Assembly: GCA_963787125.1 (NCBI GenBank)
Contig: CAWBBV010000004.1
Span: 32,001 to 96,000, forward strand
Direction: 5' to 3'
Origin: an uncultured delta proteobacterium
GTDB lineage: Bacteria > Desulfobacterota > Desulfuromonadia > Geobacterales > DSM-12255
Length of the DNA: 64,000 nt
The notes under the pieces are model-generated. The model was not told the origin of the DNA and ran no database searches. It saw only the letters and a program-made list of their open reading frames with translations. This document shows, piece by piece, positions 36,525-56,876 of the stretch (its first letter is position 1; each line of letters opens with the position of its first letter). Position numbers and translations under genes: made by a program.

Positions 36525-36548
36525 AATAAGTATGGTGTCCTCGGAATT
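36525..36548 (-). repeat. Array element, inverted copy (foot only)
   Basis: Reverse complement reads AATTCCGAGGACACCATACTTATT. Confidence 0.85.
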
Positions 36549-36583
36549 GGGGCGTCCGCGAAAAACGTGGACGTGTCCCTGAT

Positions 36584-36904
36584 TTACCCCTTTGTTTCGT
36601 CGGAGCCAGGCAAAATCGGAGACAAATAGTCTACATCTACAACAATCGCTTCACCACGCCGTACTTGTTCCTTCACTTGTTGACTGATTGCGCGATTATC
36701 GCTCCTGATGAGTTCAACCAGACGGGTGATGCGTTTGGCCTCCGATTGACCGTCGTACGTGGCGCTCCACAAGACCATTTCAAACAGCAGCGGAATAAGA
36801 TCCAGCCCCTTATCGGTAAGTATATAGCTGTCTTTCCTGCCGTCTGCATGTCCCTCACGCACAAGAATACCCGCCTCAATAAGTTGACTCAGGCGTGAGG
36901 CCAC
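36584..36904 (-). pseudogene. 5'-truncated HxlR-family winged-helix regulator
   Basis: ASRLSQLIEAGIL...YILTDKGLDLIPLLFEMVLWS; N-terminal part missing, break at the repeat at 36911. Confidence 0.75.
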
Positions 36905-36910
36905 AGAGCT

Positions 36911-36962
36911 AATTCCGGGGACACCATACTTAATTCAATAGGCCACCAATCGATCGTATTTT
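36911..36962 (+). repeat. Array element (intact foot, decayed hairpin)
   Basis: AATTCCGGGGACACCATACTTAATTC-AATAGGCCACCAATCGATCGTATTTT. Confidence 0.85.
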
Positions 36963-36974
36963 GGCTTGAGTCAA

Positions 36975-38483
36975 TTATGTTAACCCGAAAACGCTCTTTA
37001 TACACTCTTCCAGTTTCGCAACTTCTTCATCAGTGAGTTTATCGAACATTGACTTGCGCTTGCCCTGTGAAAGCCTGCCTCCATTCTCGCGACACATCCG
37101 CATAAAGAGGTCAATCATGCGATCCGGCATATCAATAATTTCCTGCATACAGGACTTAGCTTTTTCATAGTTGGTCAAAAGATCCAGCTCTGAAACTAAT
37201 TCTTTTTCTATGGTAGTTTCTATGAACCTGAACATATTTTCCGCTATTGCTGTCATATCAATGTATCGGTAATACAAAGCACTCTCATTCATCACCGTCA
37301 TTTCGCCTGCTTCAGTTAGTTGGTAGTCTATAAGGTGGAGAAGCGGTTTTGAAAACAGCTCTAAAGTTTGATCGTACTCCTTTATATTTTGGACAAGCGT
37401 AGCTGAAACGGGGAAAATTAATCCTTCTGGTGTAAATTTGGTGTTTGCCAAAATATTATGAATCAGAAAACGGTGTATTCTTCCGTTACCATCATCAAAG
37501 GGATGCATAAAAACAAAACCAAACGCAATGATTGTCGCTGCAATGACCGGATGAACTTTAGACACGGCCATCCTCTTGTGGCATTCAAACATTCCTTCCA
37601 TTAGTTCTGGCAGATCTTCCGGTTTAGGAGAAATAAAATGTACAATTTCCCTACCAAAACCGATTGATTGTCCAACGTAATTTTGATCTTTCCGGAATTC
37701 CTCATTGGCAAACCTACTGTCTACAATACTCTGCTGAAGATTGATGAGACCGTCTTTTGTAAAAAAGTCTGTTGTTTCGGCACTCTTCAGCAATTCCACA
37801 AAACGAGCCGCACGCTTTTGGTCGGGAGTTGTCCGCTCAATCTCAAATGATGATTTGGTCTCCTTTGTGAAAAGGTACGAGATGGCTCGCTGTAGTATAT
37901 CTACCGGATATTTGTCTATAACCTGTTTGGTTCGCTCCTGAAAATCGATCTCCATATATTTTTTCAAGAAATCAGTCTTTCGTATCAACGGACAAAAGCG
38001 TCGACTCCCAGGAAGATTGTTATTCACCTTTTGACGAGCTACCGGTATTTTTTTGGCAGCTACATAAAGGTCTTCATCTAGCAGATCTACATAATTGGCG
38101 ACCTTAACAGGCTCTAAATCAAGTGTTTTCCCTATGAGAAATTCATAAAGGAACCAGATCTGCCGCGCATACTTGCCGGTTGGTGTCTTGCGAACTATAT
38201 CTTCGATTTCGTTAGGGGGAGTTTGTTCGAAAACGGCATTTATGATCTCTAGATTCAAGCCTTCATGTTTCAGCGCAAAGGTTAAATGGCCACCCAATTC
38301 ATCACCAGGATGGTAAGCCAAAGGGTAAAATTCCTTCCGTCTGTGTCCCTCTATAACCGTCTGACGCCTTCCCTTTGTTTCCGTGACGTACGAAGTGACA
38401 TAATGGGGCAACACCTGCAGAGAATAACGCCGGATCAATTCCTCGTATCCAACTGAACTGCTTTTTGAAGTGTTTTTATACAT
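36975..38483 (-). CDS. Fic-domain protein
   Basis: HPFDDGNGRIHR; visibly more AT-rich than neighbours. Confidence 0.92.
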   Translation of the reverse strand: MYKNTSKSSSVGYEELIRRYSLQVLPHYVTSYVTETKGRRQTVIEGHRRKEFYPLAYHPGDELGGHLTFALKHEGLNLEIINAVFEQTPPNEIEDIVRKTPTGKYARQIWFLYEFLIGKTLDLEPVKVANYVDLLDEDLYVAAKKIPVARQKVNNNLPGSRRFCPLIRKTDFLKKYMEIDFQERTKQVIDKYPVDILQRAISYLFTKETKSSFEIERTTPDQKRAARFVELLKSAETTDFFTKDGLINLQQSIVDSRFANEEFRKDQNYVGQSIGFGREIVHFISPKPEDLPELMEGMFECHKRMAVSKVHPVIAATIIAFGFVFMHPFDDGNGRIHRFLIHNILANTKFTPEGLIFPVSATLVQNIKEYDQTLELFSKPLLHLIDYQLTEAGEMTVMNESALYYRYIDMTAIAENMFRFIETTIEKELVSELDLLTNYEKAKSCMQEIIDMPDRMIDLFMRMCRENGGRLSQGKRKSMFDKLTDEEVAKLEECIKSVFGLT

Positions 38484-38627
38484 TTGCCTCCTCCATGTAT
38501 CTCACAAAATACTGCATGATTTTGTTTTCCGCAAGAGATTCATGTGGATTTATAAGTTTATAGCTTGCTATATGCAAATTTTCAGTTTTAGAACATTTCT
38601 AAATTCATTCGTTAAGTTCCCAAGAAC

Positions 38628-38935
38628 CTAGACGCCTCTAAACTAATTGGATTCATATCTGGGGACCAAAAATTTCAATTAATCCAATTCGTTCTAAAGC
38701 TATTTTCTATTTTCTGCCTAATTCAGCTAGAATGCCTTTATCCGGGCGGGTTTAGCTAGATGCACCAAACTAATTGGCTTTCATCGCTTGGTGCAAAAAA
38801 ACAATTTGGATTGTAAAAAAACAAATTCAATTGATCCAATTCGTTCCAAATCTATTTTCAAATTTCTTTCTAACTGCCTAGAAGTGCCATTGTTCAAGAG
38901 TGTGGCTAGAGAGACGTTCTTATCTATTTTTCTAT
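38628..38935. repeat. AT-rich imperfect direct repeats (two ~110-135 bp units plus a partial third)
   Basis: CTAGA.GC...AAACTAATTGG...TTCAATT.ATCCAATTCGTTC.AAA.CTATTTTC...CTAGAA at 38628 and 38756. Confidence 0.7.
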
Positions 38936-38940
38936 TGCAG

Positions 38941-38966
38941 AATTCCTGGAACATTCCCCACATTTC
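38941..38966 (+). repeat. Array element, degenerate foot
   Basis: AATTCCTGGAACATTCCCCACATTTC. Confidence 0.5.
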
Positions 38967-38985: not shown

Positions 38986-39468
38986 CTACTCCTCCTCCAT
39001 CCGCGGCCGTAGCGGAATGACCTTCGCCGGCCCCTCCTTCAGGAAGCGCGCCTGCCTCTCCGCCCAATCACAAAAGCCGGCCACGCCCGTCTCCCCGGTT
39101 TCGGCGAGTTCGCCGGTCCAGTCTGTGCAGAGATCGGCAAGCATGAGATTGGAAACCGCCCCTATCCAGGGCTGGTACACTACTTCCCCTTCTCCGCAGC
39201 CGGTATCCGCCTTCAATAACAGGTATTTTTTCTCCTCCGCAGTCGCGGCGAACAGCTCTTCGTCGTCATCGGCCATCTCCGTTACGCAGACGGCGTCTAC
39301 GCCGTATTCCCCAGGAGCGAAATTTCCTCGCCACGCATCAGCGGCAATGGCATCCGCCCCTGCAAGGGCAGTAAAGACCGCCTCAAACTCCTCTCCGGCC
39401 TCCACCTCGACGTCTGCGTACTCGAAAACCGGCCGGACCAGCCTGACTCTGAATCTCTTTTTCTCCAT
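38986..39468 (-). CDS. Acidic hypothetical protein
   Basis: ORF with GGAG RBS immediately downstream of the RelE-type toxin gene. Confidence 0.7.
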   Translation of the reverse strand: MEKKRFRVRLVRPVFEYADVEVEAGEEFEAVFTALAGADAIAADAWRGNFAPGEYGVDAVCVTEMADDDEELFAATAEEKKYLLLKADTGCGEGEVVYQPWIGAVSNLMLADLCTDWTGELAETGETGVAGFCDWAERQARFLKEGPAKVIPLRPRMEEE

Positions 39469-39488
39469 TGCGTTCTCTCCTGTCAGGA

Positions 39489-39779
39489 TCACTCTTTCAA
39501 CCTGCCCTCTGCCGATCGGTAAACGGCAAAATTTTCCCGCTTGCCCACGGCCACTACAATGACAACGATGCGCTGGTCGTTAACCTGGTAGACAAGCCGG
39601 TAACCGGCGTTTCTCAGTTTAATTTTGTAACAGTCGGCCATACCGGAAAGCCTGGCTGATGCCACACGGGGCTTGGTCAACCGTTCAGCCAGCTTTTTCT
39701 TGAACTGCGCGCGGATTGCGCCGTCCAGTTTCTGCCATTCCTTGAGGGCGGTCTCTTTGAACTCAAGACTATAGGTCAT
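39489..39779 (-). CDS. RelE/StbE-family toxin
   Basis: MTYSLEF..ALKEWQKLD, CYKIKLRNAGYRLVYQV, AVGKRE. Confidence 0.92.
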   Translation of the reverse strand: MTYSLEFKETALKEWQKLDGAIRAQFKKKLAERLTKPRVASARLSGMADCYKIKLRNAGYRLVYQVNDQRIVVIVVAVGKRENFAVYRSAEGRLKE

Positions 39780-40014
39780 CGAGGGAAACCTTGACCGTCG
39801 GCTCCTGCTCTCTTTCCTTGACAAGTTGCGCCAGATTGTAGTCCTCGAATCTTTCCATCAGCGTTTCAAAAGCATCGGCCGGAATAAGGTAGGCGCTGGG
39901 CTTGTTATGATTGAGAATGGCGACCGGTGCCCCTTCTGCTTCATTGATGATGCGGGAGGGGTTTTTCTTCAGTTCGCTGATACTGACGGAAGCACGAGCA
40001 TAGATTCTATCCAT
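39769..40014 (-). CDS. Phd/YefM (StbD-like) antitoxin
   Basis: SISELKKNP, PVAILNHNKP, VKVSLDDL. Confidence 0.92.
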   Translation of the reverse strand: MDRIYARASVSISELKKNPSRIINEAEGAPVAILNHNKPSAYLIPADAFETLMERFEDYNLAQLVKEREQEPTVKVSLDDL

Positions 40015-40174: not shown

Positions 40175-40977
40175 TCAGCCTATCCAGTACCCTTCCGCAC
40201 GCTCCTGCAGCAACCCTTCGCGCACAAGCGTCCCGAGCAGTGCCAGCACCCGCTCCCCGTCCCGGCCACTCTGCCGGACGATGTCTTCTGCCGAAAGTCC
40301 CGGCGTCGCCAGCAGCAGTCTGAGGAGTTCCCCCCGATCTCCCGGTTCGAACCGCGGAAGGGGGACTGGCGGCTGTGCCCCTTGCTGCGGCGCGACGGGT
40401 TGGAGGCGGTCTTCTTCAGCATGGCGCCGTAGTCCATCAGGGCATTGTACCAGTCACGGATATTGTCCCGGTCCATGGTCTGCTCCACCAGGGGGAGGAT
40501 CTCGCGGTCGCTGACAGCGGTCCTGTCATGAAAGAGCAGGTGGATGAAGACGCTGCGAATGTTGGTCTCGATGAACGGGGTCGCCCGGCCGAAGGCAAAG
40601 GTAGCGATCGCGCCTGCCGTGTAGACGCCGATGCCGGGGAGGCGGACCAGATCGGCAACAGCGTCCGGCACGACCCCGCCATGCCGCGCCGTGATCTCTA
40701 CCGCCGCCCGCTGCAGCATCAGAGCGCGGCGGTTGTAGCCGAGTCCCTGCCAGAGAGCAAGCAGATCGGCGAGCGGTGCTGCCGCCAGCGTCTCCACGGT
40801 CGGGAAGCGGTCCAGAAAGGCGGCATATCTGGGCAGAACACGCTCCACCTGGGTCTGCTGGAGCATGACCTCGGAGACCATGATGCAGTAGGGGTCGGTG
40901 GTGCTCCGCCACGGCAGGGAGCGGGAATGTTCGCGGAAATAGCAGTAGATGAGCTGCTGGAACTGGTCTGTATTCAT
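40175..40977 (-). CDS. A/G-specific adenine glycosylase-like (MutY-type HhH-GPD); one base missing near 40335
   Basis: LPWR, VSEVMLQQTQV, WQGLGYNRRA, LPGIGVYTA; adding one C restores REIRGELLRLLL...YWIG*. Confidence 0.85.
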
Positions 40978-41000
40978 GGGAGGTATTCTAGCAACGGTTC

Positions 41001-41043
41001 CATTCCCTGGACAAGGAGATTTACAGGCAGGCGGCCGCCTTTT
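41001..41043 (+). repeat. Array element, degenerate
   Basis: CATTCCCTGGACA...GGCAGGCGGCCGCCTTTT. Confidence 0.55.
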
Positions 41044-41130
41044 CTCTTTCCAGGCTACATTATGTTTGAATTCAAGTACTGATTGTGACACAATTACAGT
41101 ACTCAATCAAGTACAGTAAGGAGTCAGGAA

Positions 41131-41394
41131 ATGAATACCATTCCCGCACAGGAACTGAAACGGCGCGGTATAGCAGCGGTTGACAGCTTGATCGCTCATG
41201 GTGACGTCCATGTCATCCGCAACAACCGGCCCGAGTATGTGGTGCTGTCCGAGGCGCGCTACCAGGAGCTGGTGGCCGAGGCGGAGGAGGCATATGTGGC
41301 CCGGGTGAAGGCGTCGCTGGAGGATGTGAAGGCCGGACGGGTAAAGCGGGGCAGTGCCGCTGACCTGATCAAAGAGCTTGGGCTCACGGACTAA
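41131..41394 (+). CDS. Phd/YefM-family antitoxin
   Basis: AQELKRRG, VHVIRNNRPEYVVL; GTAC-centred operator-like repeats upstream. Confidence 0.85.
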   Translation: MNTIPAQELKRRGIAAVDSLIAHGDVHVIRNNRPEYVVLSEARYQELVAEAEEAYVARVKASLEDVKAGRVKRGSAADLIKELGLTD

Positions 41395-41396
41395 GC

Positions 41397-41672
41397 ATGT
41401 ACGAACTTGTCTGGACTTCCGGTTTTACACGCGCCGCGAAAAAATTCGTTGATCAGCATCGCGAACTGCGCACCAAATTCGCCACCATCCTGAGCGACCT
41501 GGAGATCGACCCGTTCCAGCCCCACCTCAAATATCACCATCTGACCGGTAAACTGAAGGGTGTCCAGGCGGTGAGCATCACCCACAGCTATCGGATTATC
41601 CTGACCGTTATGATCACCGACAAGGAAATCATCCTCCTCGACATTAGCAGCCATGATGAGGTGTACCGGTAG
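41397..41672 (+). CDS. RelE/YafQ-family mRNA interferase toxin
   Basis: FTRAAKKF, DPFQPHLKYHHLTGKL, SHDEVY. Confidence 0.88.
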   Translation: MYELVWTSGFTRAAKKFVDQHRELRTKFATILSDLEIDPFQPHLKYHHLTGKLKGVQAVSITHSYRIILTVMITDKEIILLDISSHDEVYR

Positions 41673-41697
41673 CAGGAAAAACAGGGAGGTTCAGGGG

Positions 41698-41724
41698 AAT
41701 TCTGGGAACATCCACACCTATTCC
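41698..41724 (+). repeat. Array element, degenerate foot
   Basis: AATTCTGGGAACATCCACACCTATTCC. Confidence 0.55.
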
Positions 41725-41792: not shown

Positions 41793-42452
41793 ATGCAAGT
41801 AATCGGTATCAGCGGCAGTCCCCGCACACAATGGAACACGGCAACTCTGGTGGCAAAAGCCCTGGAGGGGGCCGCTGCACAGGGGGCTGAGACGGAAATG
41901 GTCAACCTGTACGACCTTGATTTCAAGGGGTGCACGAGCTGCTTCGCCTGCAAGACCAGAGGTGGGAAGAGCTACGGCCGCTGCGCCATGAAGGACGGTC
42001 TGACGCCGGTGCTGGAAAGTATCGCCACGGCCGACGCCCTGGTGGTCGGCTCGCCGGTCTATTTCGGCTCGGTCACCGGCGAGACGCGCAGCTTCATGGA
42101 ACGGCTGCTGTTCCCCTATCTGACCTACACCGTCCCCTACGGCACCCTCTTTCCGCAGAAGCTGGCCACGGCCTTCATCTACACCATGAACGTCAATGAA
42201 GAGCGGAGCCGGGAGTTCGGCTACGAGTACTTCATCAAAGCGAACGAACGCTATGCCCAGATGCTGCTCGGCACCGCCGAGTCGCTCTGTGCTTTCGATA
42301 CCTGCCAGGTGGACGACTATGCAAAAGTGGTGATCGAGAGCTTCGATCCGGTGCACAAGGCGAAGCGGCGGGCCGAGGCGCTGCCGCTGGACTGCCAGCG
42401 GGCCTTCGATCTGGGGAGACGGCTGGCCGGGGCGGAAACCGTCGCGGCGTAG
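41793..42452 (+). CDS. Iron-sulfur flavoprotein / flavodoxin-family protein
   Basis: GSPR..NT, GCTSCFACK...C, GSPVYFG. Confidence 0.9.
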   Translation: MQVIGISGSPRTQWNTATLVAKALEGAAAQGAETEMVNLYDLDFKGCTSCFACKTRGGKSYGRCAMKDGLTPVLESIATADALVVGSPVYFGSVTGETRSFMERLLFPYLTYTVPYGTLFPQKLATAFIYTMNVNEERSREFGYEYFIKANERYAQMLLGTAESLCAFDTCQVDDYAKVVIESFDPVHKAKRRAEALPLDCQRAFDLGRRLAGAETVAA

Positions 42453-42454
42453 GA

Positions 42455-42513
42455 GATTGCGGGGAGAGTTTACCTGAACAACAAAGGCGGCCAAACGGCC
42501 GCCTTTGTTGTTC
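42455..42513 (+). repeat. Array element with extended hairpin (probable bidirectional terminator)
   Basis: ATTGCGGGGAGA...GAACAACAAAGGCGGCC-AAAC-GGCCGCCTTTGTTGTTC. Confidence 0.85.
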
Positions 42514-42523: not shown

Positions 42524-42845
42524 TCAGAACGGCTCGACCTGGATCCGTTGCCCCGTAGTCCTGGTTTCGGACGAGCGCACTTCCTTGCCGTCAAGATCGA
42601 GGGTGCTCACCTTGTCAAGACCGGTGAACTGGTTTTCGCCAGGGCCCGGGTTGATTCGTATCCGCGTCTTCTGGGTTCCGACGAACTTCTTAATATCGTC
42701 GAATTGCAACGCAATGTAGGTTGCATCGAATTCCTAGTCACTGTTGCGCTTCCATACGCCATGGCCTAAGCTAAGTATCTGGTGCGAATCTCCACTCCGA
42801 AAGAACTTTCCATCAGACGTGAACGTGAGTAATACTACGCTGTCT
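42524..42845 (-). pseudogene. 5'-truncated beta-rich hypothetical gene with internal TAG
   Basis: Frame reads ..LLTFTSDGKFFRSGDSHQILSLGHGVWKRNSD*EFDATYIALQFDD..QVEPF; no start codon, abuts the DUF309 stop. Confidence 0.55.
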
Positions 42846-43251: not shown

Positions 43252-43339
43252 AAAGGCTACTCCTTCTACTGACAATTCACACGAACAGCTTCATTTATAT
43301 TATACCGCTGCCAGGGGAAATAGCCCGTAATTCCACACG

Positions 43340-49883: not shown

Positions 49884-50214
49884 TTGTTTTGTCACGGATA
49901 AAAAACCTCTAGACCCATCTACCACTTCACAGTTTAGCATTGTCCTTGTCATGGCCATGATATAATCAGCTATACTTGTAAAAGATAACGAACTATGACG
50001 CCGCCATGAAAAAGCTCCACGTGGAGTTTGAACGGCGGGAGCCGGCGGTCTGCCACGTCTTTTTTGCTGCCGCTGGGCATCTCGGAAAAGAAAGCGCTGC
50101 TGATCCGCACGTGATCAGCCCCTCTGGTGAACGATATGGCTATAAATTCCTGTTCTGCAGAAAAGGTGAATGATCCGACTGAATAACCGGTCTTGATCAT
50201 GATAGGGAGCAAAA

Positions 50215-51291
50215 ATGTCTGCCCGACACGCAAAACTCGAACTTTTGGGGTGGAACCCATGGCTATCCGAAATAGCGGCGCTGCAGGGGCTACCTGTTGA
50301 GGCTATGGCGCGGGTGGCAACAGTTGACCGCGAGCAATTCGTACTTTTGAATGCTAACGGTGCGTTCCGGGCCAGGCTGTCCGGCAGCTACCTTCACCAC
50401 CGGCGGCGACCGGAAGAGTTCCCCTGTGTGGGGGATTGGGTGAGTGTGGAGAAAGGCGAAAATGACGACTTCGGTCTGATCCATGCTCTGATCGACCGCA
50501 GGACCAGCCTGCGCCGCAGGGCGATTGGCAGATCGGCTGAGGTACAGATGATCGCGGCCAATGTCGATTGCGTCATCATCGTGCAGTCGTGTCACTTCGA
50601 TTTCAATCTGAACCGCCTGGAACGCTATCTGGTAATGGTCGCCGAAGGGGGTGCTGAAGCGTATATCCTGCTTACCAAGACAGATCTGATCGGCCCTGAC
50701 GTTCTGGCTGACCAGCTTTCCCGGATTCATGCCGCTGGTATCATTGCGCCCGTGCTGACCTTGAGTAATGTCACCCGCAAAGGCGTTGACGAGTTGAAAC
50801 TCGTTTTGTTGCCCGGCAAAACCTACTGCTTAGTCGGTTCATCCGGAGTCGGCAAAAGTACGATCATCAACGAGCTGATCGGTCGGCAACAGCTTGAAAC
50901 AAAGGGAGTCAGTGCGAGCGGTGAGGGAAGGCACACGACCGTCCGCCGGGAGCTGATCGTTCTTGATAACGGTGCCATGGTTATTGATAATCCCGGGATG
51001 CGCGAATTCGGCATTTCTGCTGCGGAGGAAGGACTCAACGGGGGCTTCAGCGACATCACGAGCATTGCCTCCCGCTGCCGTTACCGGGATTGCACCCATA
51101 CGGATGAACCGGACTGTGCCGTACTCAGCGCTTTGGGGGCTGGAGGCATAAATCAGGCACATTATGAAAACTACCTAAAATTGAAGGGAGAGTCTGACTT
51201 CTACCGGTTGTCTCATGCAGAAAAGAGAAAGAAGGATCGCGATTTCGGCAAATTTATTAAATCGGCGAAGAAAGACCTGGTACGAGAATAA
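50215..51291 (+). CDS. rsgA: Ribosome small subunit-dependent GTPase A
   Basis: VGDWV, TKTDL, GSSGVGKST, GRHTT, DNPG, CRYRDCTH..EPDC. Confidence 0.93.
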   Translation: MSARHAKLELLGWNPWLSEIAALQGLPVEAMARVATVDREQFVLLNANGAFRARLSGSYLHHRRRPEEFPCVGDWVSVEKGENDDFGLIHALIDRRTSLRRRAIGRSAEVQMIAANVDCVIIVQSCHFDFNLNRLERYLVMVAEGGAEAYILLTKTDLIGPDVLADQLSRIHAAGIIAPVLTLSNVTRKGVDELKLVLLPGKTYCLVGSSGVGKSTIINELIGRQQLETKGVSASGEGRHTTVRRELIVLDNGAMVIDNPGMREFGISAAEEGLNGGFSDITSIASRCRYRDCTHTDEPDCAVLSALGAGGINQAHYENYLKLKGESDFYRLSHAEKRKKDRDFGKFIKSAKKDLVRE

Positions 51292-51352: not shown

Positions 51353-51377
51353 AAAAGGCGGCCAAGCGGCCGCCTTT
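51353..51377 (+). repeat. Array element (hairpin)
   Basis: AAAAGGCGGCCAAGCGGCCGCCTTT. Confidence 0.88.
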
Positions 51378-51435
51378 ACTGCTTCCACACACGGGGTCTG
51401 CTGGCCGAGTTAGACGGTGCATTAGCAGCCGGGCA

Positions 51436-51732
51436 TCAGTTTACTTCCAGATAGGGGTGAGTAGTAATGCGGCAATCTTCCTTGCGACCGGTCCGGGCAA
51501 TGGCGCCAATTGCCTCAACGATTCTGCTGACCGATTCATCGGTCGCAATGATCTCCAGCTTGACCTTCTCGACGATGTTTGCCATGAACGTGGCGCCGCG
51601 AAACATCATCACCTGTCCTTTCTGGTGGCACTTGATCGTGCTCTCCATGAAGTTCTCGATACCCATATTCTCAAGGGCGCTTCGTACCTCGTGCATCTTG
51701 AACTGATCGATAACGGCTTCAATCTGCTGCAT
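51436..51732 (-). CDS. Divergent P-II family protein
   Basis: IEAVI..FK..EV..AL, FRGATF, KVKLEII, ARTG. Confidence 0.8.
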   Translation of the reverse strand: MQQIEAVIDQFKMHEVRSALENMGIENFMESTIKCHQKGQVMMFRGATFMANIVEKVKLEIIATDESVSRIVEAIGAIARTGRKEDCRITTHPYLEVN

Positions 51733-51811: not shown

Positions 51812-51964
51812 AGAGCGCATAAAATAAATTGTTTGTAATTACGGAGAATTAGCTGCAAGAAGGCGACGCAGCGGGGATGACCGTGTGCCGGAAACTTGTG
51901 CTTCGGGGCGTCGGTCTGTCTAGTAAACAGTCAGTATGCTGCGCCGGCGAAATTATGAGGGGCG

Positions 51965-52017
51965 AACTCGGCGGCCACCATCCATGATTCATAAGGTCGC
52001 CAATCGGCCGCCATTTT
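51965..52017 (+). repeat. Array element, degenerate full length
   Basis: AACTCGGCGGCCACCATCCATGATTCATAAGGTCGCCAATCGGCCGCCATTTT. Confidence 0.75.
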
Positions 52018-52085
52018 AGCTCTTGTTGCCGACCGCCGCAATGGTGGTATGCTTACAACCGAAAACCAATAAAAGGAGACACGCC

Positions 52086-52508
52086 ATGTCAACATTGAAA
52101 GAGCAGATAGCCGCTATCATGGCCCCGTTGCAGCTCTCGGCAGTAGCCACCATCGCCGCCGGGAAACCGTGGGTCCGCTATGTGATGACGGTCGGCGGGA
52201 ACGACCTGAACGTCCGTTTCGCGACCTATGCGGGATCCCGCAAGGTTGCGCAGATAGCCGCCAACCCTGAGGTGCATGTGACGCTGGGAGTGAACGATCC
52301 GGCCACCATGACCCCGTACCTGCAGATCCAGGGACTGGCTCGCTTCTCCACTGAAGCGGCGGAGCGCCACGGGTTCTGGAGCGGGATGCTGGCCAACTAT
52401 TTCAGCGGGCCGGATGATCCGAACTACGGTGTGGTGATCGTGACCCCCTACCGAATCGAGCTGGCGAAGGCGGGCGTGCCGGTGCCGGAGGTCTGGACGG
52501 CGGGCTAG
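52086..52508 (+). CDS. Pyridoxamine 5'-phosphate oxidase-family (FMN-binding split barrel) protein
   Basis: ATI..GKPWVRYV, SRKVAQIAANPEV, YFSGPDDPNY; AGGAG RBS. Confidence 0.87.
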   Translation: MSTLKEQIAAIMAPLQLSAVATIAAGKPWVRYVMTVGGNDLNVRFATYAGSRKVAQIAANPEVHVTLGVNDPATMTPYLQIQGLARFSTEAAERHGFWSGMLANYFSGPDDPNYGVVIVTPYRIELAKAGVPVPEVWTAG

Positions 52509-52518
52509 AATCTGCGGT

Positions 52519-52568
52519 GATCCGGGGGCAGTTATTTAATTCAAAAGGCGGCCAAGCGGCCGCCTTTG
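52519..52568 (+). repeat. Array element
   Basis: GATCCGGGGGCAGTTATTTAATTCAAAAGGCGGCCAAGCGGCCGCCTTTG. Confidence 0.9.
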
Positions 52569-52585
52569 TCGTTGTACGAAAGGGC

Positions 52586-53191
52586 TTACCGGCTCGCCCC
52601 GATCAGCCGCACGAAATCATCATAGGCGGCGAAACCGGTTAACCGCTTTCCGTCGCAGAGATGGGTGGGGACTGCGGTGATGCGCAGCTCCATGGCCAGC
52701 TGCCAATCGGCATCAACCGCTGCGGCATAGCTCCGCTCCAGCAGCACGGTCCGCGCCTCATCCGGGGACAGCCCGGCAACTGCGGCGATCCGGACCAACT
52801 CATCGACCAGGGCGATGTTGACCCCTTCGACGAAATATGCCCTGTAGACCGCATGGCGGAACTGTTCCCCCCGACCCTGCTCCTCCGCCCATTTCCCCAG
52901 TTCCTGGGCGAACCGGCTGTTGTAGGTACGGCTCCGTTCGACCAACGGCAGGTCCTCTGCCGCTGCTGTCTGCTGCAGCCGGGCCTGCATGTCGCGGATC
53001 ATTGCCTCCCGGCCGGCAAAGAGATCGGCAAGCTCCCTCCCCTCGGTTGGAGTCTCCGGGTGGAGCGGGAAAACTCTCCAGAGTAGCTGGACATTGTATT
53101 CCTTCTGGAGGCGATCGGTACGCACGGTACCGAGGTAGCACCAGGGTCAGATGTAATCGAAAAAGACCTCTACCACAGATGTGCTGTTCAT
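52586..53191 (-). CDS. DsbA/FrnE-family oxidoreductase, selenoprotein (UxxC)
   Basis: GGAGGAGG RBS; MNSTSVVEVFFDYI-U(TGA 53149-53147)-PWCYLG in frame with the listed ORF; FPLHPETP, ITAVPT; SECIS-like hairpin follows. Confidence 0.88.
53105..53146 (-). promoter_or_regulatory. Bacterial SECIS-like element
   Basis: 13 nt after UGA: stem TCGGTAC / GTACCGA with loop CGTGC; lower CTGG/CCAG pairing. Confidence 0.7.
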
Positions 53192-53214
53192 GGTGTCCTC
53201 CTCCCGGCAGTTTC

Positions 53215-53889
53215 TTAGAGCAGCCTCAATACCGCCTGCGCCGCCGGTTCCGATGAAGCGGGGTTCTGGCCGGTGATGAGATTACCGTCACTGATGACAT
53301 GGGACTGCCAGTCAGCCCCTTTGGAATATTTACCGCCGGTCTTGCGTAGTTCGTCCTCAACCAGGAACGGCACAATTGCAGTCAGACCGACCGCTGCTTC
53401 TTCGGTGTTTGAAAAGCCGGTGACTCCTTTTCCATTGACCAGCTGAGTACCATCTGCAGCCCGGGCATGGCGCAACACCCCGGGGGCATGACAAACCGCT
53501 GCAACCGGTTTCCCTTTGGCATACATGGTCTCGATCAGGGCGATGGAATCCCGGTCCTCTGCCAAATCCCACAAAGGCCCATGGCCGCCGGGATAAAAGA
53601 GCGCGTCATATTCATCCGCTATAACTGTCTTCAACGGTACGGTATGCTCCAGAATCGCCTGCGCTTCAGCGTCGTTGTTGAAACGCTCGGTGGCTGTTGT
53701 CTGGAAATCCTTTTCAGCACTCTTAGGGTCCAACGGCGGTTGTCCTCCTTTGGGCGAAGCCAGAGTGATCGTGGCTCCCGCATCCTTGAAGACATAGTAG
53801 GGGGCGGCGAACTCTTCCAGCCAGAAACCGGTCTTCTTTCCGGTTTTGCCAAGCTCATCGTGTGATGTCAGCACCATCAGTATCTTCAA
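53215..53889 (-). CDS. DJ-1/PfpI (Hsp31-like) type 1 glutamine amidotransferase domain protein
   Basis: TGFWLEEFAAPY, PGGHGPLWDL, AVCHAP, ITGQNPAS. Confidence 0.92.
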   Translation of the reverse strand: MKILMVLTSHDELGKTGKKTGFWLEEFAAPYYVFKDAGATITLASPKGGQPPLDPKSAEKDFQTTATERFNNDAEAQAILEHTVPLKTVIADEYDALFYPGGHGPLWDLAEDRDSIALIETMYAKGKPVAAVCHAPGVLRHARAADGTQLVNGKGVTGFSNTEEAAVGLTAIVPFLVEDELRKTGGKYSKGADWQSHVISDGNLITGQNPASSEPAAQAVLRLL

Positions 53890-54022
53890 GATCGGATCTC
53901 CTCGCGTGTGATGTCTCCGACTGCTCCGGCTTATGCCTGTCGGTTGATATATTGTACCTCATTTTGATTGAGTCACCAGATCGGGGCTAAAAATTGGAAG
54001 GGTCGTGACGGGGAGATCCTGG

Positions 54023-54058
54023 AACAGCAAAGGCGGCTGATTGGCCTCCTTTGCTGTT
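54023..54058 (+). repeat. Array element (hairpin)
   Basis: AACAGCAAAGGCGGCTGATTGGCCTCCTTTGCTGTT. Confidence 0.75.
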
Positions 54059-54124: not shown

Positions 54125-55171
54125 CTACTCCCGTACCCAGTGGCAGGTGTACCCTCCCGGGTTCTTCACCAGGTAGTCCTGATGATGCTCTTCAGCCCGC
54201 CACCAGGGACCGGCCGGGACGATCTCGGTGACGATCGGCCGCTTCCACTTGCCGCTGGCATCCACCTCGGCCTTGACCTTTTGGGCGATCCGCTGCTGCT
54301 CTGCGTCATGGTAGAAAATGGCGCTCCGATAGCTGGAGCCCGTATCGTTCCCCTGGCGGTTCAGGGTGGTCGGATCGTGCATCCGGAAGAAGAAGCGAAG
54401 CAGGGCCTCAAAGCTGGTCCTGGTCGGATCGAATTCGATCCGCACCGCTTCGGCATGCCCCTCATGGTTACCATAGGTGGCGTTCGCCACCTTCCCGCCG
54501 GTATAGCCCACCTCCGTGGCGATCACCCCCGGCTGCTGGCGCAACAGATCCTCCATCCCCCAGAAACAGCCGCCGGCCAGGGTTGCGAACTGCTGCGCCG
54601 CTGCTGCCGAGGCCTTCCGGCCGAAGAGGGGGAGCCAGGCGCCGTAGCCGGCCTTCTCCAGGTCATCCACCGGGATGAAGCGGAGCGAAGCGGAGTTGAT
54701 GCAGTAGCGTAGCCCCCCCTTGTCCCGCGGCCCGTCGGTGAAGATGTGCCCCAGATGGGAGTCGGCCTCGGCCGAGCGGACCTCGGTCCGGACCATGCCG
54801 AAGTTGCTGTCCTTGTTCTCCTTCACGTGGTCCGGGGCGACCGGCCTGGTAAAGCTGGGCCAACCGGTGCCGGACTCAAACTTGTCCAGGGAGGAGAAGA
54901 GCGGCTCGCCGCTGACAATGTCCACGTAGAGCCCTTCGCGATGATTGTTCCAGTATTCGTTGTCGAACGGCGGCTCGGTCCCCGCCTTCCGGGTGACGTT
55001 GTACTGCAGCGGCGTCAGGCGCTTTTGCAGCTCTTCGTCAGCATATTTTTTCCCTGTCATGGTCGTCTCCTTTCCGGCAACCTGGTCCACCACGCGGAGA
55101 GGACGAACCATCACCGCCAGCACCAGAAGTGCCGTCATAATTCCTAATACCGTCAATATTTTCCTTTTCAT
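54125..55171 (-). CDS. msrAB: Bifunctional methionine sulfoxide reductase B/A with N-terminal signal/anchor
   Basis: [20 protein letters not shown] (MsrB); [15 protein letters not shown] (MsrA). Confidence 0.93.
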
Positions 55172-55396
55172 GCTGGTGCCTCGCTGCCCGTTTCATTCTG
55201 CGTGGAGCAATTGAATCCCGCTTTGTATCCAGGCGTCACGGCTCCGTTCCCATTTCACCCCAACCGCCGGGATAAATTAAGCGCCTACATTTTTAGTATA
55301 ACATACCAATTAACTCCTGAGGCAAGAATATGGCAGTATCTACCTTTGTAATTTTATCCAGGGAACGCCCATATTTTCACTTGTAACATCTCAGGC

Positions 55397-55447
55397 TTTA
55401 CTGGAACAGCTTACTGATTACAAAAGGGAGCCAATCGGCCGCCTTTG
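55397..55447 (+). repeat. Array element, degenerate
   Basis: TTTACTGGAACAGCTTACTGATTACAAAAGGGAGCCAATCGGCCGCCTTTG. Confidence 0.75.
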
Positions 55448-55555
55448 CTGTATAGTAGTTAGCACCTGGATGACGTAGCTGTCTGACGCTGATATTCGAC
55501 CGACCGGTCATGACGAACTGTGCTGGGTACAAGATTCAGCGCGAGGAAAGGTTAC

Positions 55556-56437
55556 ATGGGAATAGCTAAACATCCTTCAGTAGTTACCATGCCTGAAACC
55601 GCCAGACCGTACCCGTCCCTCCTTGTTTTCCTGTGCGGGCGGTTCCCGGCCATTCCCCGGGAGATCTGGGCGCAAAGAATTGCCGCGGGAAAAGTCCTGG
55701 ACGAGCATGGCCAGCGACTGACGCAGGAGACTGAATACGCCCCTTTGCGGCGTATTTTTTATTTCCGCGAGGTTGTTTGTGAACCGCACATCCCTTTTGC
55801 CGAGAAAATCCTCTTTCTCGATGATGAGATTCTGGTCGCCTGCAAACCCCATTTCCTTCCGGTGACCCCGGGTGGACGCTATGTTGACGAATGTCTGTTG
55901 AACCGGTTGCGCAGCAGTACAGGAATTGAAGATCTGGTGCCGCTGCACCGTATAGATCGCGGCACAGCCGGCCTGGTTCTCTTCTCGGTCAATAAAAAGA
56001 GCAGGGGGCGCTACGCCGGACTCTTCCTGAACAGGCTGATTGAAAAGACCTATCAGGCAGTGGCGGCATGTCAGCCTCTGCAGGAAACAGCCTCATGGCA
56101 GGTGGAGACAAGAATAGAGCGGGGCGAACCGGGGTTTCTGATGAAGACGGCATCCGGCAGGGTCAATGCCAGTTCTTCCATCAAGCTGGTGGAAGTCAGG
56201 GGAGAACTGGCCCGCTTTACCCTGCGGCCGCACACCGGCAAAACCCATCAGCTGCGGATTCACATGAGCGGCATCGGCTTTGCGATACTAAATGACAGCT
56301 ACTATCCAAAGCTGCTGGCCGAAAGCGATGATAATTTTGCCGCACCGCTCCAGCTGCTGGCGCAAAGGCTCTGTTTCAAGGACCCTCTGAGCGGCAGGAG
56401 CAGAGAGTTCAGCTCCGGCCGCGAGCTGTTATGGTGA
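55556..56437 (+). CDS. RluA-family pseudouridine synthase
   Basis: KPHFLPVTP, HRIDRGTAG, TGKTHQLRIH. Confidence 0.9.
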   Translation: MGIAKHPSVVTMPETARPYPSLLVFLCGRFPAIPREIWAQRIAAGKVLDEHGQRLTQETEYAPLRRIFYFREVVCEPHIPFAEKILFLDDEILVACKPHFLPVTPGGRYVDECLLNRLRSSTGIEDLVPLHRIDRGTAGLVLFSVNKKSRGRYAGLFLNRLIEKTYQAVAACQPLQETASWQVETRIERGEPGFLMKTASGRVNASSSIKLVEVRGELARFTLRPHTGKTHQLRIHMSGIGFAILNDSYYPKLLAESDDNFAAPLQLLAQRLCFKDPLSGRSREFSSGRELLW

Positions 56438-56450
56438 TGATTTCACTGAT

Positions 56451-56500
56451 ATATGCAGGACATTTTTTCACTACAAAAGGCAACCGATCGGCCGCCTTTG
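56451..56500 (+). repeat. Array element, degenerate
   Basis: ATATGCAGGACA...CAAAAGGCAACCGATCGGCCGCCTTTG. Confidence 0.75.
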
Positions 56501-56531
56501 CTGTTTCTGCCTGCCACCCGCATGACTTCCC

Positions 56532-56798
56532 ATGCCCCCGCGGGAATGTGCCTTTCTCGCGGCCATGCTTCCAGGGCCACAAAAGGTTTACAATCCGTAC
56601 CGGCATCTGGATCGGGTGCTGAAGCGCTCCGACACCATCCTGGGACTGTTGCGCCAGAAGGGCGTACTGAACGAGGCGGAGTACCGGCTGGCCCTGGCGG
56701 AGACACCCAATATCACTGGGATGCAGCGGAAAGTGGACCAAAGCTTCACGGCCAAGGCAAGGCGATTCTTCAAGGATCTGTTCGGGTTTTTCCGGTGA
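56532..56798 (+). pseudogene. 3' fragment of a peptidoglycan transglycosylase (GT51) gene
   Basis: PRECAFLAAMLPGP..YNP..R...L...G resembles the last GT51 motif; earlier catalytic motifs absent; sits between two repeats. Confidence 0.65.
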
Positions 56799-56828
56799 GC
56801 AGGCAAGTTATTGGGTTCAGGAGGGTGG

Positions 56829-56876
56829 ACTTCAGGGGACAATACTATAATTCAAAAGGCAACAAACGGTGACTCT
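56829..56876 (+). repeat. Array element, rightmost copy
   Basis: ACTTCAGGGGACAATACTATAATTCAAAAGGCAACAAACGGTGACTCT. Confidence 0.75.

Follow-up and report, generated by a model that had tools for sequence, protein, structure and literature searches.

A chromosomal gene-cassette array anchored 3' of dapL, with no integrase beside it

Genes of the locus

The window, a stretch of 64,000 nucleotides from an uncultured delta proteobacterium, holds a chromosomal gene-cassette array that is anchored 3' of dapL and lies beside no integrase. The genes of the array and its flanks are listed below in window coordinates.

34365..35598, +, dapL-like class I/II aminotransferase (Pfam Aminotran_1_2); conserved left anchor of the array
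35691..36258, +, BrnT/BrnA toxin-antitoxin pair (Pfam PF04365, PF14384), between dapL and the array start
36584..36904, -, HxlR-type regulator fragment (Pfam PF01638, profile positions 37-88 only)
36975..38483, -, Fic-domain gene (Pfam PF02661)
38986..40014, -, unnamed 168-aa ORF, then ParE toxin, then Phd antitoxin (Pfam)
40183..41106, -, HhH-GPD base-excision glycosylase-like gene (Pfam PF00730)
41131..41672, +, Phd/YafQ toxin-antitoxin cassette (Pfam)
41793..42452, +, NADPH-dependent FMN reductase cassette (Pfam PF03358, FMN_red)
42844..43275, -, DUF309 gene (Pfam PF03745)
43396..44447, -, two VOC-superfamily genes, 3-dmu-9_3-mt type and glyoxalase type (Pfam)
44651..46179, +, unnamed 164-aa ORF and two AHSA1/SRPBCC genes (Pfam PF08327)
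46441..47712, +, MFS transporter (Pfam PF06779)
47862..48353, +, unnamed 163-aa ORF (no family in Pfam or NCBIfam)
48643..49758, -, Flavodoxin_2 quinone-reductase-like gene and small cytochrome c (Pfam)
50215..51291, +, RsgA-type GTPase (Pfam PF03193)
51436..51732, -, P-II-like gene (Pfam PF00543; NCBIfam match under its cut-off)
52023..52508, +, pyridoxamine-5'-phosphate-oxidase-like (PNPOx) flavoprotein (Pfam PF01243)
52586..53889, -, DsbA-like and DJ-1/PfpI genes (Pfam)
54125..55171, -, fused MsrB-MsrA methionine sulfoxide reductase (Pfam PF01641, PF01625)
55520..56437, +, RluA-family pseudouridine synthase (Pfam PF00849)
56532..56798, +, 88-aa fragment of a PBP1A-type glycosyltransferase domain
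56896..58965, -, GAF-GGDEF diguanylate cyclase, right flank (Pfam)

The units contain one to three genes each on either strand, about half of them on the opposite strand, and no transposase gene was found inside the array with Pfam or NCBIfam. Pfam confirmed, on both strands, most of the cargo families named in an earlier note on this DNA; the ORF at 44651-45145 (164 aa), read there as DinB, had no match in Pfam or NCBIfam, and the 168-aa ORF within 38986..40014 had no family in either. In this assembly the dapL frame is shifted by a 1-nt insertion and meets an in-frame TGA near 34654. Homologues of the Phd/YafQ cassette lie in the relatives' loci L011, L014, L015, L016 and L028, and those of the FMN reductase cassette in L014, L017, L024 and L026. 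The 3-dmu-9_3-mt-type VOC gene, the first of its pair, is common to six other arrays. The PBP1A-type fragment is kept in three relatives, with changes at third codon positions, and an orthologue of the GAF-GGDEF gene was found in 5/5 same-genus genomes.

The repeated element and its distribution

The array element is about 58 nt long and bipartite: module A (GAATTCCGGGGACACCATACTTAATTC) is followed by an invariant GC hairpin B (AAAGGCGGCC-NNNN-GGCCGCCTTT) and by a short tail with the consensus GCTGTTT. About 15 co-oriented copies of the composite lie between 36909 and 56868, and a repeat search over window positions 36000-57500 returned a 12-copy family of 48 nt and a 7-copy family of 59 nt. 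The copies and their remnants are as follows.

36523..36548, -, inverted module A at the dapL-proximal array end (E 1.6e-4, module-A profile)
36909..36968, +, element copy, A intact, B degenerate (E 3e-7)
38937..38965, +, marginal module-A-like remnant (E 2.7, independent module-A profile)
41024..41052, +, collapsed half of hairpin B and tail (repeat family D3; sequence reading)
41693..41722, +, module A alone (E 0.01, module-A profile from other genomes)
42453..42512, +, element copy A+B, stem lengthened to 16 bp (repeat and profile searches)
43339..43397, +, element copy A+B (repeat and profile searches)
44511..44555, +, module A and only the right half of hairpin B (E 6e-6)
46189..46247, +, element copy A+B (repeat and profile searches)
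46320..46367, +, hairpin B and partial module A (repeat and profile searches, sequence reading)
47689..47747, +, element copy A+B (repeat and profile searches)
49857..49888, +, hairpin B alone, right arm minus one base (profile search, sequence reading)
51353..51383, +, hairpin B alone (profile search, sequence reading)
51964..52022, +, element copy A+B (repeat and profile searches)
52516..52574, +, element copy A+B, reference copy (repeat search, fold)
54021..54058, strand ambiguous, hairpin B alone, tail mirrored on either side (profile search, sequence reading)
55395..55453, +, element copy A+B (repeat and profile searches)
56448..56506, +, element copy A+B (profile search)
56824..56868, +, last copy, module A and degenerate hairpin (E 0.28, module-A profile; E 3, full profile)

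The inverted module A at 36523..36548 coincides with the beginning of the region described in the earlier note. The copy at 46320 begins 131 bp past the previous one, so the intervening unit is empty. The copy at 54021..54058 is a bare palindrome with a mirrored tail, and therefore its orientation is ambiguous. Of 19 element starts listed in the earlier note, 14 were recovered on the + strand by the full-element profile at E<=0.05 (36911, 42455, 43340, 44514, 46190, 46321, 47694, 49859, 51353, 51965, 52519, 55397, 56451 and, ambiguous in orientation, 54023). The start at 41698 was matched by the module-A profile from other genomes, and those at 56829 and 38941 were marginal with a module-A profile. 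At 41001 only the collapsed half hairpin is left, and the start at 40135 was detected by no profile.

In the reference copy, the hairpin has a 10-bp stem and a 4-nt loop and folds at -18.2 kcal/mol (z -3.7). Module A, a motif of about 26 nt, is unstructured and gave no folding signal (z >= 0). Hairpin B, a perfect palindrome around a short centre that varies among copies (AATC, AAGC, GATC, GATT, AAAC), is kept at the sequence level. Of 73 copies, 63-68 retained the identical pair at its inner 10 bp and double changes numbered 0-1; it is the sequence that is conserved, not pairing alone. Module A is worse preserved in the array copies than hairpin B. The A+B composite occurs in a single orientation and fixed register, and the orientation of module A is constant regardless of gene strand.

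A full-length profile gave nine matches in this genome (E 7e-14 to 7e-10), all on the + strand at C4:68911-88505 (window 36911-56505), and these are the very nine copies from which it was built. The same profile search found no full-length element outside the array in 4,208,176 bases, extending the earlier note's observation of no full copy in the flanks to the whole 4.2-Mb genome. An independent module-A profile, built solely from other genomes, had 11 genome matches at E<=1: five in the array region, three beside a RAYT-like gene on contig C12, two on C9 and one on C18. Hairpin B alone occurs at 19 genome sites (<=1 mismatch per arm), of which eight lie in the 20-kb array and 11, all symmetric palindromes, outside it. 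The composite is confined to the array locus, and hairpin B alone is not exclusive to it.

Conservation and reordering in relatives

The array lay downstream of dapL in 11/11 genomes examined, which span several families of one order, suggesting that it is old. Orthologues of dapL with 92-96% aa identity stand upstream of the arrays in eight relatives. Co-oriented arrays follow dapL at L011, L014, L015, L017, L024, L026, L028 and L029, and array starts adjoin dapL in G006 (C67) and G007 (C180). An inverted module A occupies the equivalent position in L017, L026 (three tandem copies), L011, L028 and L029. An exact 20-mer spanning the A|B join was found in 33 stretches among 185,579 species genomes, 32 of them titled Geobacter, Geobacteraceae, Pelobacter(aceae), Desulfuromonadales/-aceae, Trichlorobacter or delta proteobacterium. 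In a 401-genome sample of the phylum, more than one element copy was seen solely in same-order genomes, and 72,556 plasmid records contained none.

The arrays of relatives have cargo in common, but its order differs; the three genes up to and including dapL are colinear in the same loci. We took as informative every between-genome pair of elements with a homologous flank. Among 52 such pairs, both flanks were shared in 2, the left only in 17 and the right only in 33. The 50 pairs sharing just one flank bear out the earlier note's expectation that gains and losses would break at the element, and neither an even genomic spread of the element nor a conserved gene order with unrelated breakpoints was found. 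L014 and L024 have the shared cassettes in a permuted order, which deletion alone would not produce.

Module A, including TTAATTCAAAA, travels with the left flank and the tail with the right flank. The change of flank is located past module A and before the post-hairpin tail, in the hairpin or at its edge. Units have been gained, lost and rearranged with their junction there, and each accordingly has the tail on its left and module A on its right. Some synteny breaks have no element in this genome, such as DsbA|DJ-1 and VOC|glyoxalase. At these element-less breaks, the element is present in the other genome (L012 after AHSA1; L014 around DsbA), and after VOC, L026, L011 and L015 each bear one.

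No recent cassette duplication was seen in 12 loci, where the longest internal repeats were 107-189 nt. Metagenome contigs, which gave only one joint with at least 60 letters on the shorter side, showed no circle junctions, so the excised unit circles that the earlier note suggested looking for were not seen there. With dnaA as proxy for the replication origin, dapL and the array are co-directional with replication in 5/5 complete genomes, which makes the A>B> strand the lagging-strand template. As an argument for an enzyme acting on single-stranded DNA this counts once, because it rests on one ancestral orientation.

Integrases, a RAYT-like transposase and rival explanations

The array behaves like an integron, with small units whose order is shuffled in relatives, but it has a different site and no integrase beside it. 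Like sedentary chromosomal integrons and CALINs, it is a long array of short co-oriented sites with a fixed chromosomal anchor; the units are tightly packed, with one to few genes each, toxin-antitoxin pairs and small enzymes of stress response or detoxification abound in the cargo, and content and order vary among relatives with junctions at the site. Unlike in integrons, about half of the units lie on the other strand, no integrase occurs within 73 kb, and the site is a 10-bp GC stem with a 4-nt loop beside the unstructured 26-nt motif. The perfect stem, the loop and the lack of R''/R' boxes ruled out an attC site; here fold, anatomy and domain searches agree with the earlier note, which saw a non-attC element and no recombinase in view. 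This genome has two IntI-family genes, neither with an adjoining AB array, and its own attC-like repeats form a different family, 1.6 kb from one intI. Nor does IntI co-occur with the arrays: it was found in 12/27 hairpin-rich genomes vs 10/14 hairpin-poor ones, and in 3/4 genomes of family f2, where the hairpin is wholly absent.

A 220-aa gene outside the window (C12:217638-218297) encodes a Y1_Tnp protein (E 1.8e-13). Among solved structures its closest match is E. coli TnpArep, 4ER8 (E 2.4e-5), with which the HUH and Tyr motifs align. Inverted A-type repeats bracket this RAYT-like gene in 11 of the 12 loci with both flanks available; a search for an HUH/RAYT gene next to the motif, as the earlier note had advised, thus identified module A as the inverted repeat flanking such a gene. 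Hairpin B is absent from the gene's own flanks. As in REP/RAYT systems and REPINs, a single small Y1 HUH gene lies between inverted short repeats, gene subtype and repeat variant change in step (a second subtype, at 68% identity, has its own variant of module A), and inverted doublets occur without the gene (G034 at L013:12395; G016:C51:972/996). In G034, a HipBA pair beside the RAYT-like gene is bracketed by 46-nt direct repeats containing module A. In contrast to REP sequences, module A is non-palindromic and has 1-13 copies per genome rather than hundreds, and most copies are co-oriented within a single array and joined to a hairpin that is missing beside the gene; the protein, at 66 bits, falls under the NCBIfam RAYT cut-off of 80. 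REP sequences are not known to have gene cargo between their repeats. An orthologue (>=68% identity) was present in 10/27 genomes with at least four B hairpins and in 3/14 with fewer, and was not found in the 100%-complete G014 and G028, which have arrays. Across the 41 genomes, the occurrence of arrays is matched neither by that of the RAYT-like gene nor by that of IntI.

Our tentative best reading is a platform for shuffling cassettes whose junction lies in the hairpin; an HUH enzyme that acts in trans on single-stranded DNA probably serves it. The earlier note had likewise proposed a shuffling platform with a trans-acting enzyme; the order does break at the element, while the use of an enzyme is not borne out by the distribution of either candidate gene. 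We infer that the likeliest enzyme is the RAYT-like Y1 HUH transposase encoded on C12 of this genome (G000). On single-stranded DNA it would bind module A, next to the extruded hairpin, and cut one strand close to the 5' foot of hairpin B; the cut end would then be joined to another element copy. DNA between two co-oriented sites could then be released as a circle with one rebuilt site, or such a circle could be inserted at a resident site. Hairpin B may in addition stop transcription in both directions between units. The IS200/IS605 family (IS608, ISDra2) and its gene-less derivatives similarly combine a Y1 HUH enzyme, a site in which a hairpin is preceded on its 5' side, at a fixed distance, by the sequence that is recognized or cleaved, and a strict single orientation relative to replication. 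They differ in that their two ends are unlike each other and have subterminal hairpins but lack inverted repeats, whereas here one site type is repeated, the enzyme gene has plain inverted repeats without hairpins, and the array has no transposase. Against the HUH reading stand the distribution of the gene and its flanks without hairpin B, the lack of folding and the lower conservation of module A, the absence of recent duplications in the 12 loci and of circle junctions in the metagenome contigs, and the synteny breaks without an element in this genome. In addition, the copies are most alike where the junction lies, and homologous recombination would favour such a place too.

The chief rival is homologous recombination between the repeats, from which the same junction pattern is expected. 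Without any dedicated enzyme, REP-like or terminator-like repeats would be reordered by RecA-dependent recombination, within the genome or with incoming DNA of relatives, or by hairpin template switching. We regard this as rather unlikely, with evidence on both sides. Identity between copies runs longest in the hairpin core, to which the junction maps, arrays are retained in genomes where both the RAYT-like gene and IntI went undetected (e.g. G014, G025), symmetric B palindromes occur at 11 sites outside the array, and the 12 loci bear no trace of recent activity. However, with a length of only about 24 nt the identical core is close to RecA's lower limit, and the confinement of the composite to one locus, one orientation and a fixed register is left unexplained. 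So are the invariance of the hairpin across families, when the nearby dapL terminator differs between this genome and L029, and the fact that a Y1 transposase has module A as its cognate repeat.

It is less likely still that a tyrosine recombinase, XerC/D or one of the order's long IntI-like integrases, uses hairpin B as a double-stranded palindromic core, with arms of about 9 bp, a 6-bp centre and module A setting direction. The perfect palindrome with its short variable centre fits such a core, Xer genes are universal (the two best PF00589 matches here, on C13 and C1, we take to be XerC/D), and the two IntI-family genes have no AB array beside them. Yet classical strand exchange does not tolerate differing centres, which the copies have, and the distribution of IntI, the separate attC-like family and the shared orientation of the sites, unlike that in pdif modules, also argue against it. 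The pdif (XerC/D) modules of Acinetobacter plasmids are likewise small groups of genes, often for resistance or a toxin-antitoxin pair; short recombination sites delimit them, and host enzymes mobilize them in trans. Their 28-bp sites alternate in orientation and are plasmid-borne, unlike the co-oriented, chromosomal and bipartite sites of the array. Least probable of all, the element would have no recombination role and be a transcription stop or insulator beside a protein-binding motif, synteny breaks coinciding with it because it fills nearly every inter-unit gap. Hairpin B does lie within about 10-80 nt of stop codons of genes on either strand, and some breaks fall at element-less junctions of this genome. 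Nevertheless, only 2 of about 14 hairpins fitted a simple stem-plus-T-run rule, terminator-like sites were not enriched (19 found vs 21 +/- 5.3 in shuffles), and invariant sequence without covariation is unlike terminators. Moreover, module A keeps its orientation independently of gene strand, and the other genome bears the element at the break in L012, L014, L026, L011 and L015.

The composite element and its confinement to the array

The array is conserved and anchored at dapL; its composite site is unique to it, and its units are reordered between genomes, with the junction falling in or at a hairpin. A repeat search of window positions 36000-57500 found two families of direct repeats, one of 12 copies of 48 nt and one of 7 copies of 59 nt, all in the same direction. 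The sequences read at the 19 element starts listed in the earlier note showed a three-part structure: module A (consensus GAATTCCGGGGACACCATACTTAATTC), hairpin B (AAAGGCGGCC-NNNN-GGCCGCCTTT) and a short tail (consensus GCTGTTT). When the 4,208,176-base source genome (G000) was scanned with a profile of nine full copies, every full-length match was on the + strand and fell within C4:68911-88505 (window 36911-56505). Since this profile was made from those same nine copies and matches them by construction, an independent module-A profile of 31 copies, all from other genomes, was also run. At E<=1 it returned 11 matches in G000. Five fell within the array region and three surround a gene on contig C12; of the rest, C9 has two and C18 one. 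Most of the 19 listed copies stood, 14 at E<=0.05 and the one at 41698 at E 0.01; those at 56829 and 38941 were marginal, that at 41001 is a collapsed half hairpin, and that at 40135 was unsupported by the profiles. An inverted module A at window 36523-36548 marks the array start. Hairpin B alone was enriched in the array, though not exclusive to it: with up to one mismatch per arm it occurred at 19 genome sites, eight of which fall in the 20-kb array. The 11 copies beyond it form symmetric palindromes, with the tail mirrored at the left (GAAACAG...CTGTTTC).

We aligned 73 element copies from 11 genomes. Each of the inner ten pairs of hairpin B was the identical base pair in 63-68 of the 73 copies, with 0-1 double (compensatory) changes, so the hairpin is conserved as sequence and not merely as structure; the four outer pairs were variable, with some compensation. 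The consensus is a perfect 10-bp stem with a 4-nt loop. As single-stranded DNA, the reference copy folded at -18.2 kcal/mol (z -3.7). Module A, whether from the array or from the flanks of the C12 gene, folded no better than shuffles (z -0.19 to +1.49) and had no pairing partner. Intrinsic terminators are GC-rich hairpins with a T-run after them, and their structure is conserved rather than their sequence. A stem-plus-T-run terminator rule was passed by only two hairpins, at 47718 and 49857, the usual tail after the hairpin being TTTGCTGTTT; terminator-like sites in the region were not enriched (19 against 21 +/- 5.3 expected from shuffles).

Pfam assignments placed the following genes at the borders of the array.

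Left flank: dapL-like aminotransferase, then a BrnT/BrnA pair
Right flank: GAF-GGDEF gene

The cargo read earlier from the sequence was confirmed by Pfam, except that the ORF called DinB (44651-45145) had no family match. The Fic, ParE/Phd, HhH-GPD, DUF309, VOC, flavodoxin/cytochrome, P-II, DsbA/DJ-1 and MsrAB units have their genes on the other strand from dapL and the element. None of the 64 ORFs in window 34597-58965 belonged to a recombinase family, which bears out the first impression that no recombinase was in view, and the array contains no Y1 gene. No tRNA gene was found within the window, and the sole match of an Rfam scan of it was a 6S RNA at 19164-19343 (RF00013, 76.8 bits).

Distribution, cassette reordering and the position of the junction

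Module A (up to 3 mismatches) was present in 30 of 41 related genomes at 1-13 copies each, compared with 0-1 for a reversed-pattern control. Hairpin B (up to 1 mismatch) was found in 36 of the 41 and was absent from all four genomes of one family, f2. Among the loci compared, co-oriented arrays of full elements occurred in ten further genomes. The array lay downstream of a dapL orthologue, in the same orientation, at eight loci (L011, L014, L015, L017, L024, L026, L028 and L029), and in G006 and G007 module A was found just downstream of dapL on the dapL contigs. Arrays can be long; on G014:C13 the hairpin matches span 420,966 to 469,290. In a sample of 401 genomes from the phylum, more than one copy of the A|B join was found only in genomes of the same order, while six genomes outside the order each had one 3-mismatch match, which is the control level. 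The exact A|B 20-mer occurred in 33 stretches among 185,579 species genomes, 32 of them titled Geobacter, Geobacteraceae, Pelobacter(aceae), Desulfuromonadales/-aceae, Trichlorobacter or delta proteobacterium. The remaining stretch, L068, whose record title reads Candidatus Falkowbacteria bacterium, is alone in matching exactly outside Geobacter-type records, and mis-binning of its contig is likely. Among the records with the 20-mer are those titled Geobacter hydrogenophilus DSM 13691 and Trichlorobacter thiogenes ATCC BAA-34. No element copies were found among plasmid records.

We compared the G000 array in six frames with ten other arrays. Recurring cassettes, at about 50-94% amino-acid identity, were Phd/YafQ, FMN reductase, VOC, glyoxalase, the 44651 ORF, AHSA1, P-II-like, DsbA, DJ-1, ParE/Phd, MsrAB, RluA and the PBP fragment; Fic, HhH-GPD, DUF309, MFS, the 47862 ORF, flavodoxin/cytochrome and PNPOx recurred in none of the ten. 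The common cassettes were colinear with G000 in nearer relatives (L016, L011/L012, L015) and permuted in L014 and L024, so that deletion from a single ancestral order is insufficient to account for the arrangement. As a control, the three genes through dapL were colinear across the same loci. The earlier note had proposed testing whether gains and losses break at the element, and that they do was supported by a flank test in which 300 nt on either side of 75 hairpin-bearing copies were compared between genomes (tblastx 1e-6, colinear). Among the 52 pairs with at least one homologous flank, both flanks were common in only two, the left alone in 17 and the right alone in 33. Two results complicate this account. 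There were also breaks where G000 has no element (DsbA|DJ-1, VOC|glyoxalase, AHSA1|AHSA1); the other genome has an element there. A search of 12 loci revealed no recent cassette duplication.

The flanks also indicated where the switch falls. In left-flank-sharing pairs, similarity stayed above background up to TTAATTCAAAA but not beyond it; in right-flank-sharing pairs it exceeded background in the tail and all that follows, and this excess may begin as early as the first loop base. This places the switch in or at hairpin B, and no finer mapping is allowed because the stem is invariant. In contigs from four public sequencing runs, many joints fell at elements, and in nearly all of them the 20-31 letters on the shorter side were the repeat itself; the sole joint with as many as 64 letters there was 41030->47770. 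No circle junction could be claimed in these contigs, and no public run contained at least half of the sampled words, the best share being 0.19.

Candidate enzymes and comparison with known systems

A gene for a Y1 HUH enzyme beside the motif, which the earlier note had suggested looking for, was found outside the window: module A brackets a 220-aa Y1_Tnp gene on C12 (217638-218297), with perfect copies at C12:217582 and 217622 (+) and 218337 (-), and the stop codon lies within the repeat. The protein, called RAYT-like here, matches Y1_Tnp at E 1.8e-13 (Pfam 51.1 bits against a cut-off of 23) and scores 66.3 bits on the NCBIfam RAYT model NF047646, under the cut-off of 80. Its closest solved structure is E. 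coli TnpArep (4ER8, E 2.4e-5), with which its HUH motif (NHVHL) and tyrosine motif (RYVEMNP) align. The orthologues at 67-80% identity (L013, L018-L022) each have inverted module A on both sides, the copies lying about 715 bp from one another; around a 68%-identical subtype, found in G029, G016 (two copies) and G004, the repeat is a variant, GGGGACAGTATAT... Inverted A-type repeats were present at 11 of the 12 loci with both flanks available, the exception being G026. The gene ends are 25-nt inverted repeats and have no hairpins; hairpin B is absent from the gene flanks, so the link between the enzyme and the array depends on module A alone. Module A was not found beside pyrD in same-genus genomes without the RAYT-like gene.

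Several signs point to mobility of this gene. It lies at differing loci between genomes, and nested partial duplications of module A with one common end lie beside it:

G000 C12:217540-217660 (L007:5540-5660), nested tandem module A duplications
L022, nested tandem module A duplications
L023, nested tandem module A duplications

At the start of the G035 array there are three 63-bp tandem units of inverted module A (L026:5156-5342). These tandems and the nested duplications look like traces of repeated cutting and joining, or of slippage. In G034 (L013:10548-12440) 46-nt direct repeats that include module A lie on either side of a HipB/HipA pair immediately next to the RAYT-like gene; the distal repeat runs on into an inverted A, giving a doublet that resembles a REPIN (REP doublet), and a truncated RAYT-like duplicate (aa 1-49) lies in between. 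The gene occurs with its inverted repeats twice on one 4-kb contig of G016 (C80, L038) and at three contig ends of G001 (C26, C43, C48), suggesting mobility and more than one copy in some genomes. Its homologues on plasmids were at most 43% identical.

G000 also encodes five divergent Y1_Tnp paralogues of 312-329 aa, which are not insertion-sequence copies, since their mutual identity is 31-63%; no perfect GC hairpin was found within 1.5 kb of them.

C1:404872, Y1_Tnp paralogue
C3:47725, Y1_Tnp paralogue
C4:125354, Y1_Tnp paralogue
C16:126193, Y1_Tnp paralogue
C23:102444, Y1_Tnp paralogue

Two IntI-family genes (TIGR02249, above cut-off) were found in G000, one on C23 and the other at C4:161732-162667, at a distance of 73 kb past the end of the array; the element is absent from both neighbourhoods. 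A separate repeat family of about 58 nt, with CCAAC...GTTGG ends, a long imperfect stem and an attC-like look, occurs as a pair on C4, at C23:105078 (1.6 kb from the C23 intI) and at four to five other places. It probably represents the conventional integron sites of G000, distinct from the element.

C4:151290-151374, attC-like repeat
C4:151798-151882, attC-like repeat
C23:105078-105130, attC-like repeat
C5:32602, attC-like repeat
C6:20319, attC-like repeat
C12:34502, attC-like repeat

Integrons are, as far as is known, the one well-established means by which bacterial chromosomes stockpile and reorder cassettes of single genes. Their attC sites are imperfect palindromes of about 57-141 nt with R''/L''...L'/R' boxes (GTTRRRY) and extrahelical bases. 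Like an integron, the array varies in cassette content and order, with junctions at the site. However, an adjacent IntI, with attI and Pc, would be expected; the boxed imperfect palindrome is replaced by a perfect 10-bp stem with a 4-nt loop and an unpaired module A; and the opposite-strand units named above run against the element strand, whereas integron cassettes are mostly co-oriented and promoterless. The view that the element is not attC thus holds, with no AAC...GTT box pair in the 73-copy consensus and a separate attC-like family in the same genome. The array works like an integron array, yet it fails on adjacent IntI, attC sites and co-oriented promoterless cassettes: integron-like architecture and cargo are combined with an unrelated site and no resident integrase. 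Module A and the RAYT-like gene resemble REP/RAYT in having a Y1 HUH gene between inverted repeats (module A only, hairpin B excepted). The resemblance fails on palindromy, REP repeats being hairpin-forming palindromes with a conserved 5' tetranucleotide; on copy number, tens to hundreds of dispersed extragenic copies compared with 0-13 of module A per genome (41 genomes); and on the curated RAYT score. IS200/IS605 elements have the transposase inside, differing ends with subterminal hairpins and no inverted repeats, unlike the RAYT-like gene with its inverted repeats and hairpin-free ends. Xer/dif-type sites are 28-bp XerC-spacer-XerD sequences bound by XerC/D, and pdif modules differ from the array, whose sites are co-oriented. 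By architecture, the array is neither an IS200/IS605 element nor a pdif module. We found no description of the element in the literature searched; the multicopy-sequence supplements of the two Geobacter genome papers may list the repeat uninterpreted. The element is not described in the portions consulted of PMC2700814, PMC2996986, PMC3184786, PMC2426708 and PMC3108266, and four motif strings did not occur in the paper texts searched.

Which enzyme acts on the array was approached through co-occurrence.

Candidate genes in 41 related genomes (hairpin-rich, at least 4 B hairpins)
RAYT-like orthologue (at least 68% identity): 10 of 27 hairpin-rich genomes, 3 of the 14 others
IntI family: 12 of 27 hairpin-rich genomes, 10 of the 14 others

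IntI was present in three of the four f2 genomes, a family with no hairpin B, and G014 (100%-complete) has a long array with neither gene. Since neither gene tracks the arrays, co-occurrence singles out no enzyme. We infer, at less than an even chance, that the enzyme is the RAYT-like HUH protein. A RAYT-like Y1 HUH enzyme, domesticated or mobile, would act in trans to excise and insert gene cassettes, its proposed substrate being its own recognition repeat fused to the invariant hairpin on the lagging-strand template. Y1 HUH enzymes (IS608, TnpArep) bind hairpins on single-stranded DNA, recognise a short sequence set at a constant distance and work on the lagging-strand template. Both the constant register of A to B and the single orientation agree with this picture. 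So does the direction of dapL, which is co-directional with replication in 5/5 complete genomes with dnaA as origin proxy, although this counts as one ancestral event; the dnaA position in complete relatives was used because the GC skew of contig C4 (about -0.01) is too weak to assign strands.

Homology-driven recombination at the repeats is the main alternative, about as likely or slightly less so; the array of G014, with neither candidate gene, sits easily with it, and it leaves the single orientation unexplained. A tyrosine recombinase using hairpin B as its palindromic core appears improbable; IntI does not track the arrays, and the attC-like family of G000 is a different one. That the element has no role in recombination we consider very improbable. 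As for the HUH reading, an array that is a single-strand analogue of the integron, performing order-wide HUH-driven gene capture in Geobacter and relatives, is a doubtful proposal that we offer tentatively. Site-bounded cassette arrays are a kind already known, and the chance of a categorically new chemistry here is considerable; we know of no cassette system described as run by HUH chemistry. If HUH-driven, the array would represent convergent evolution of cassette capture on single-stranded DNA and would give a concrete function to RAYT-type genes, whose biological role is still debated. If homology-driven, it would show that modularity of a chromosomal region can arise from a conserved repeat with no dedicated enzyme. 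On either reading, the dapL-anchored array is conserved across families of environmentally important metal-reducing bacteria, and the locus is testable in cultivable strains.

Further observations at the array and its flanks

Compared with L011 and L017, the dapL-like gene contains one extra nucleotide at window 34640-34665, which produces an in-frame TGA and a frame shift; either this is an assembly error or the gene, otherwise highly conserved, is a pseudogene here. Between dapL and the first array element, G028 has a paralogue (L014:13318-13737) with 35% identity to the RAYT-like gene. Upstream of the Fic gene, an AT-rich gap (window 38668-38873) contains two 54-nt direct repeats (83% identity) and a 20-nt tandem, unrelated to the element.

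Four relatives have, downstream of an intact dapL, repeats of its final 120-160 nt adjacent to toxin-antitoxin islets (MNT/HEPN, VapBC-like).

L011:6945-7102, dapL 3'-end duplicate
L029:10531-10652, dapL 3'-end duplicate
G006:C67:2137-2254, dapL 3'-end duplicate
G007:C180:4539-4669 and 6312-6443, dapL 3'-end duplicates

G000 has no such duplicate, and in L029 an inverted module A abuts the duplicate. We read these repeats as marking an independent hot spot for site-specific integration at the dapL 3' end. The last array unit (window 56532-56798) is an 88-aa piece of a PBP1A-type glycosyltransferase domain, kept in G000, G007 and G015. Its differences fall mostly at third codon positions (22/29 and 29/41), so the fragment seems to be under purifying selection.
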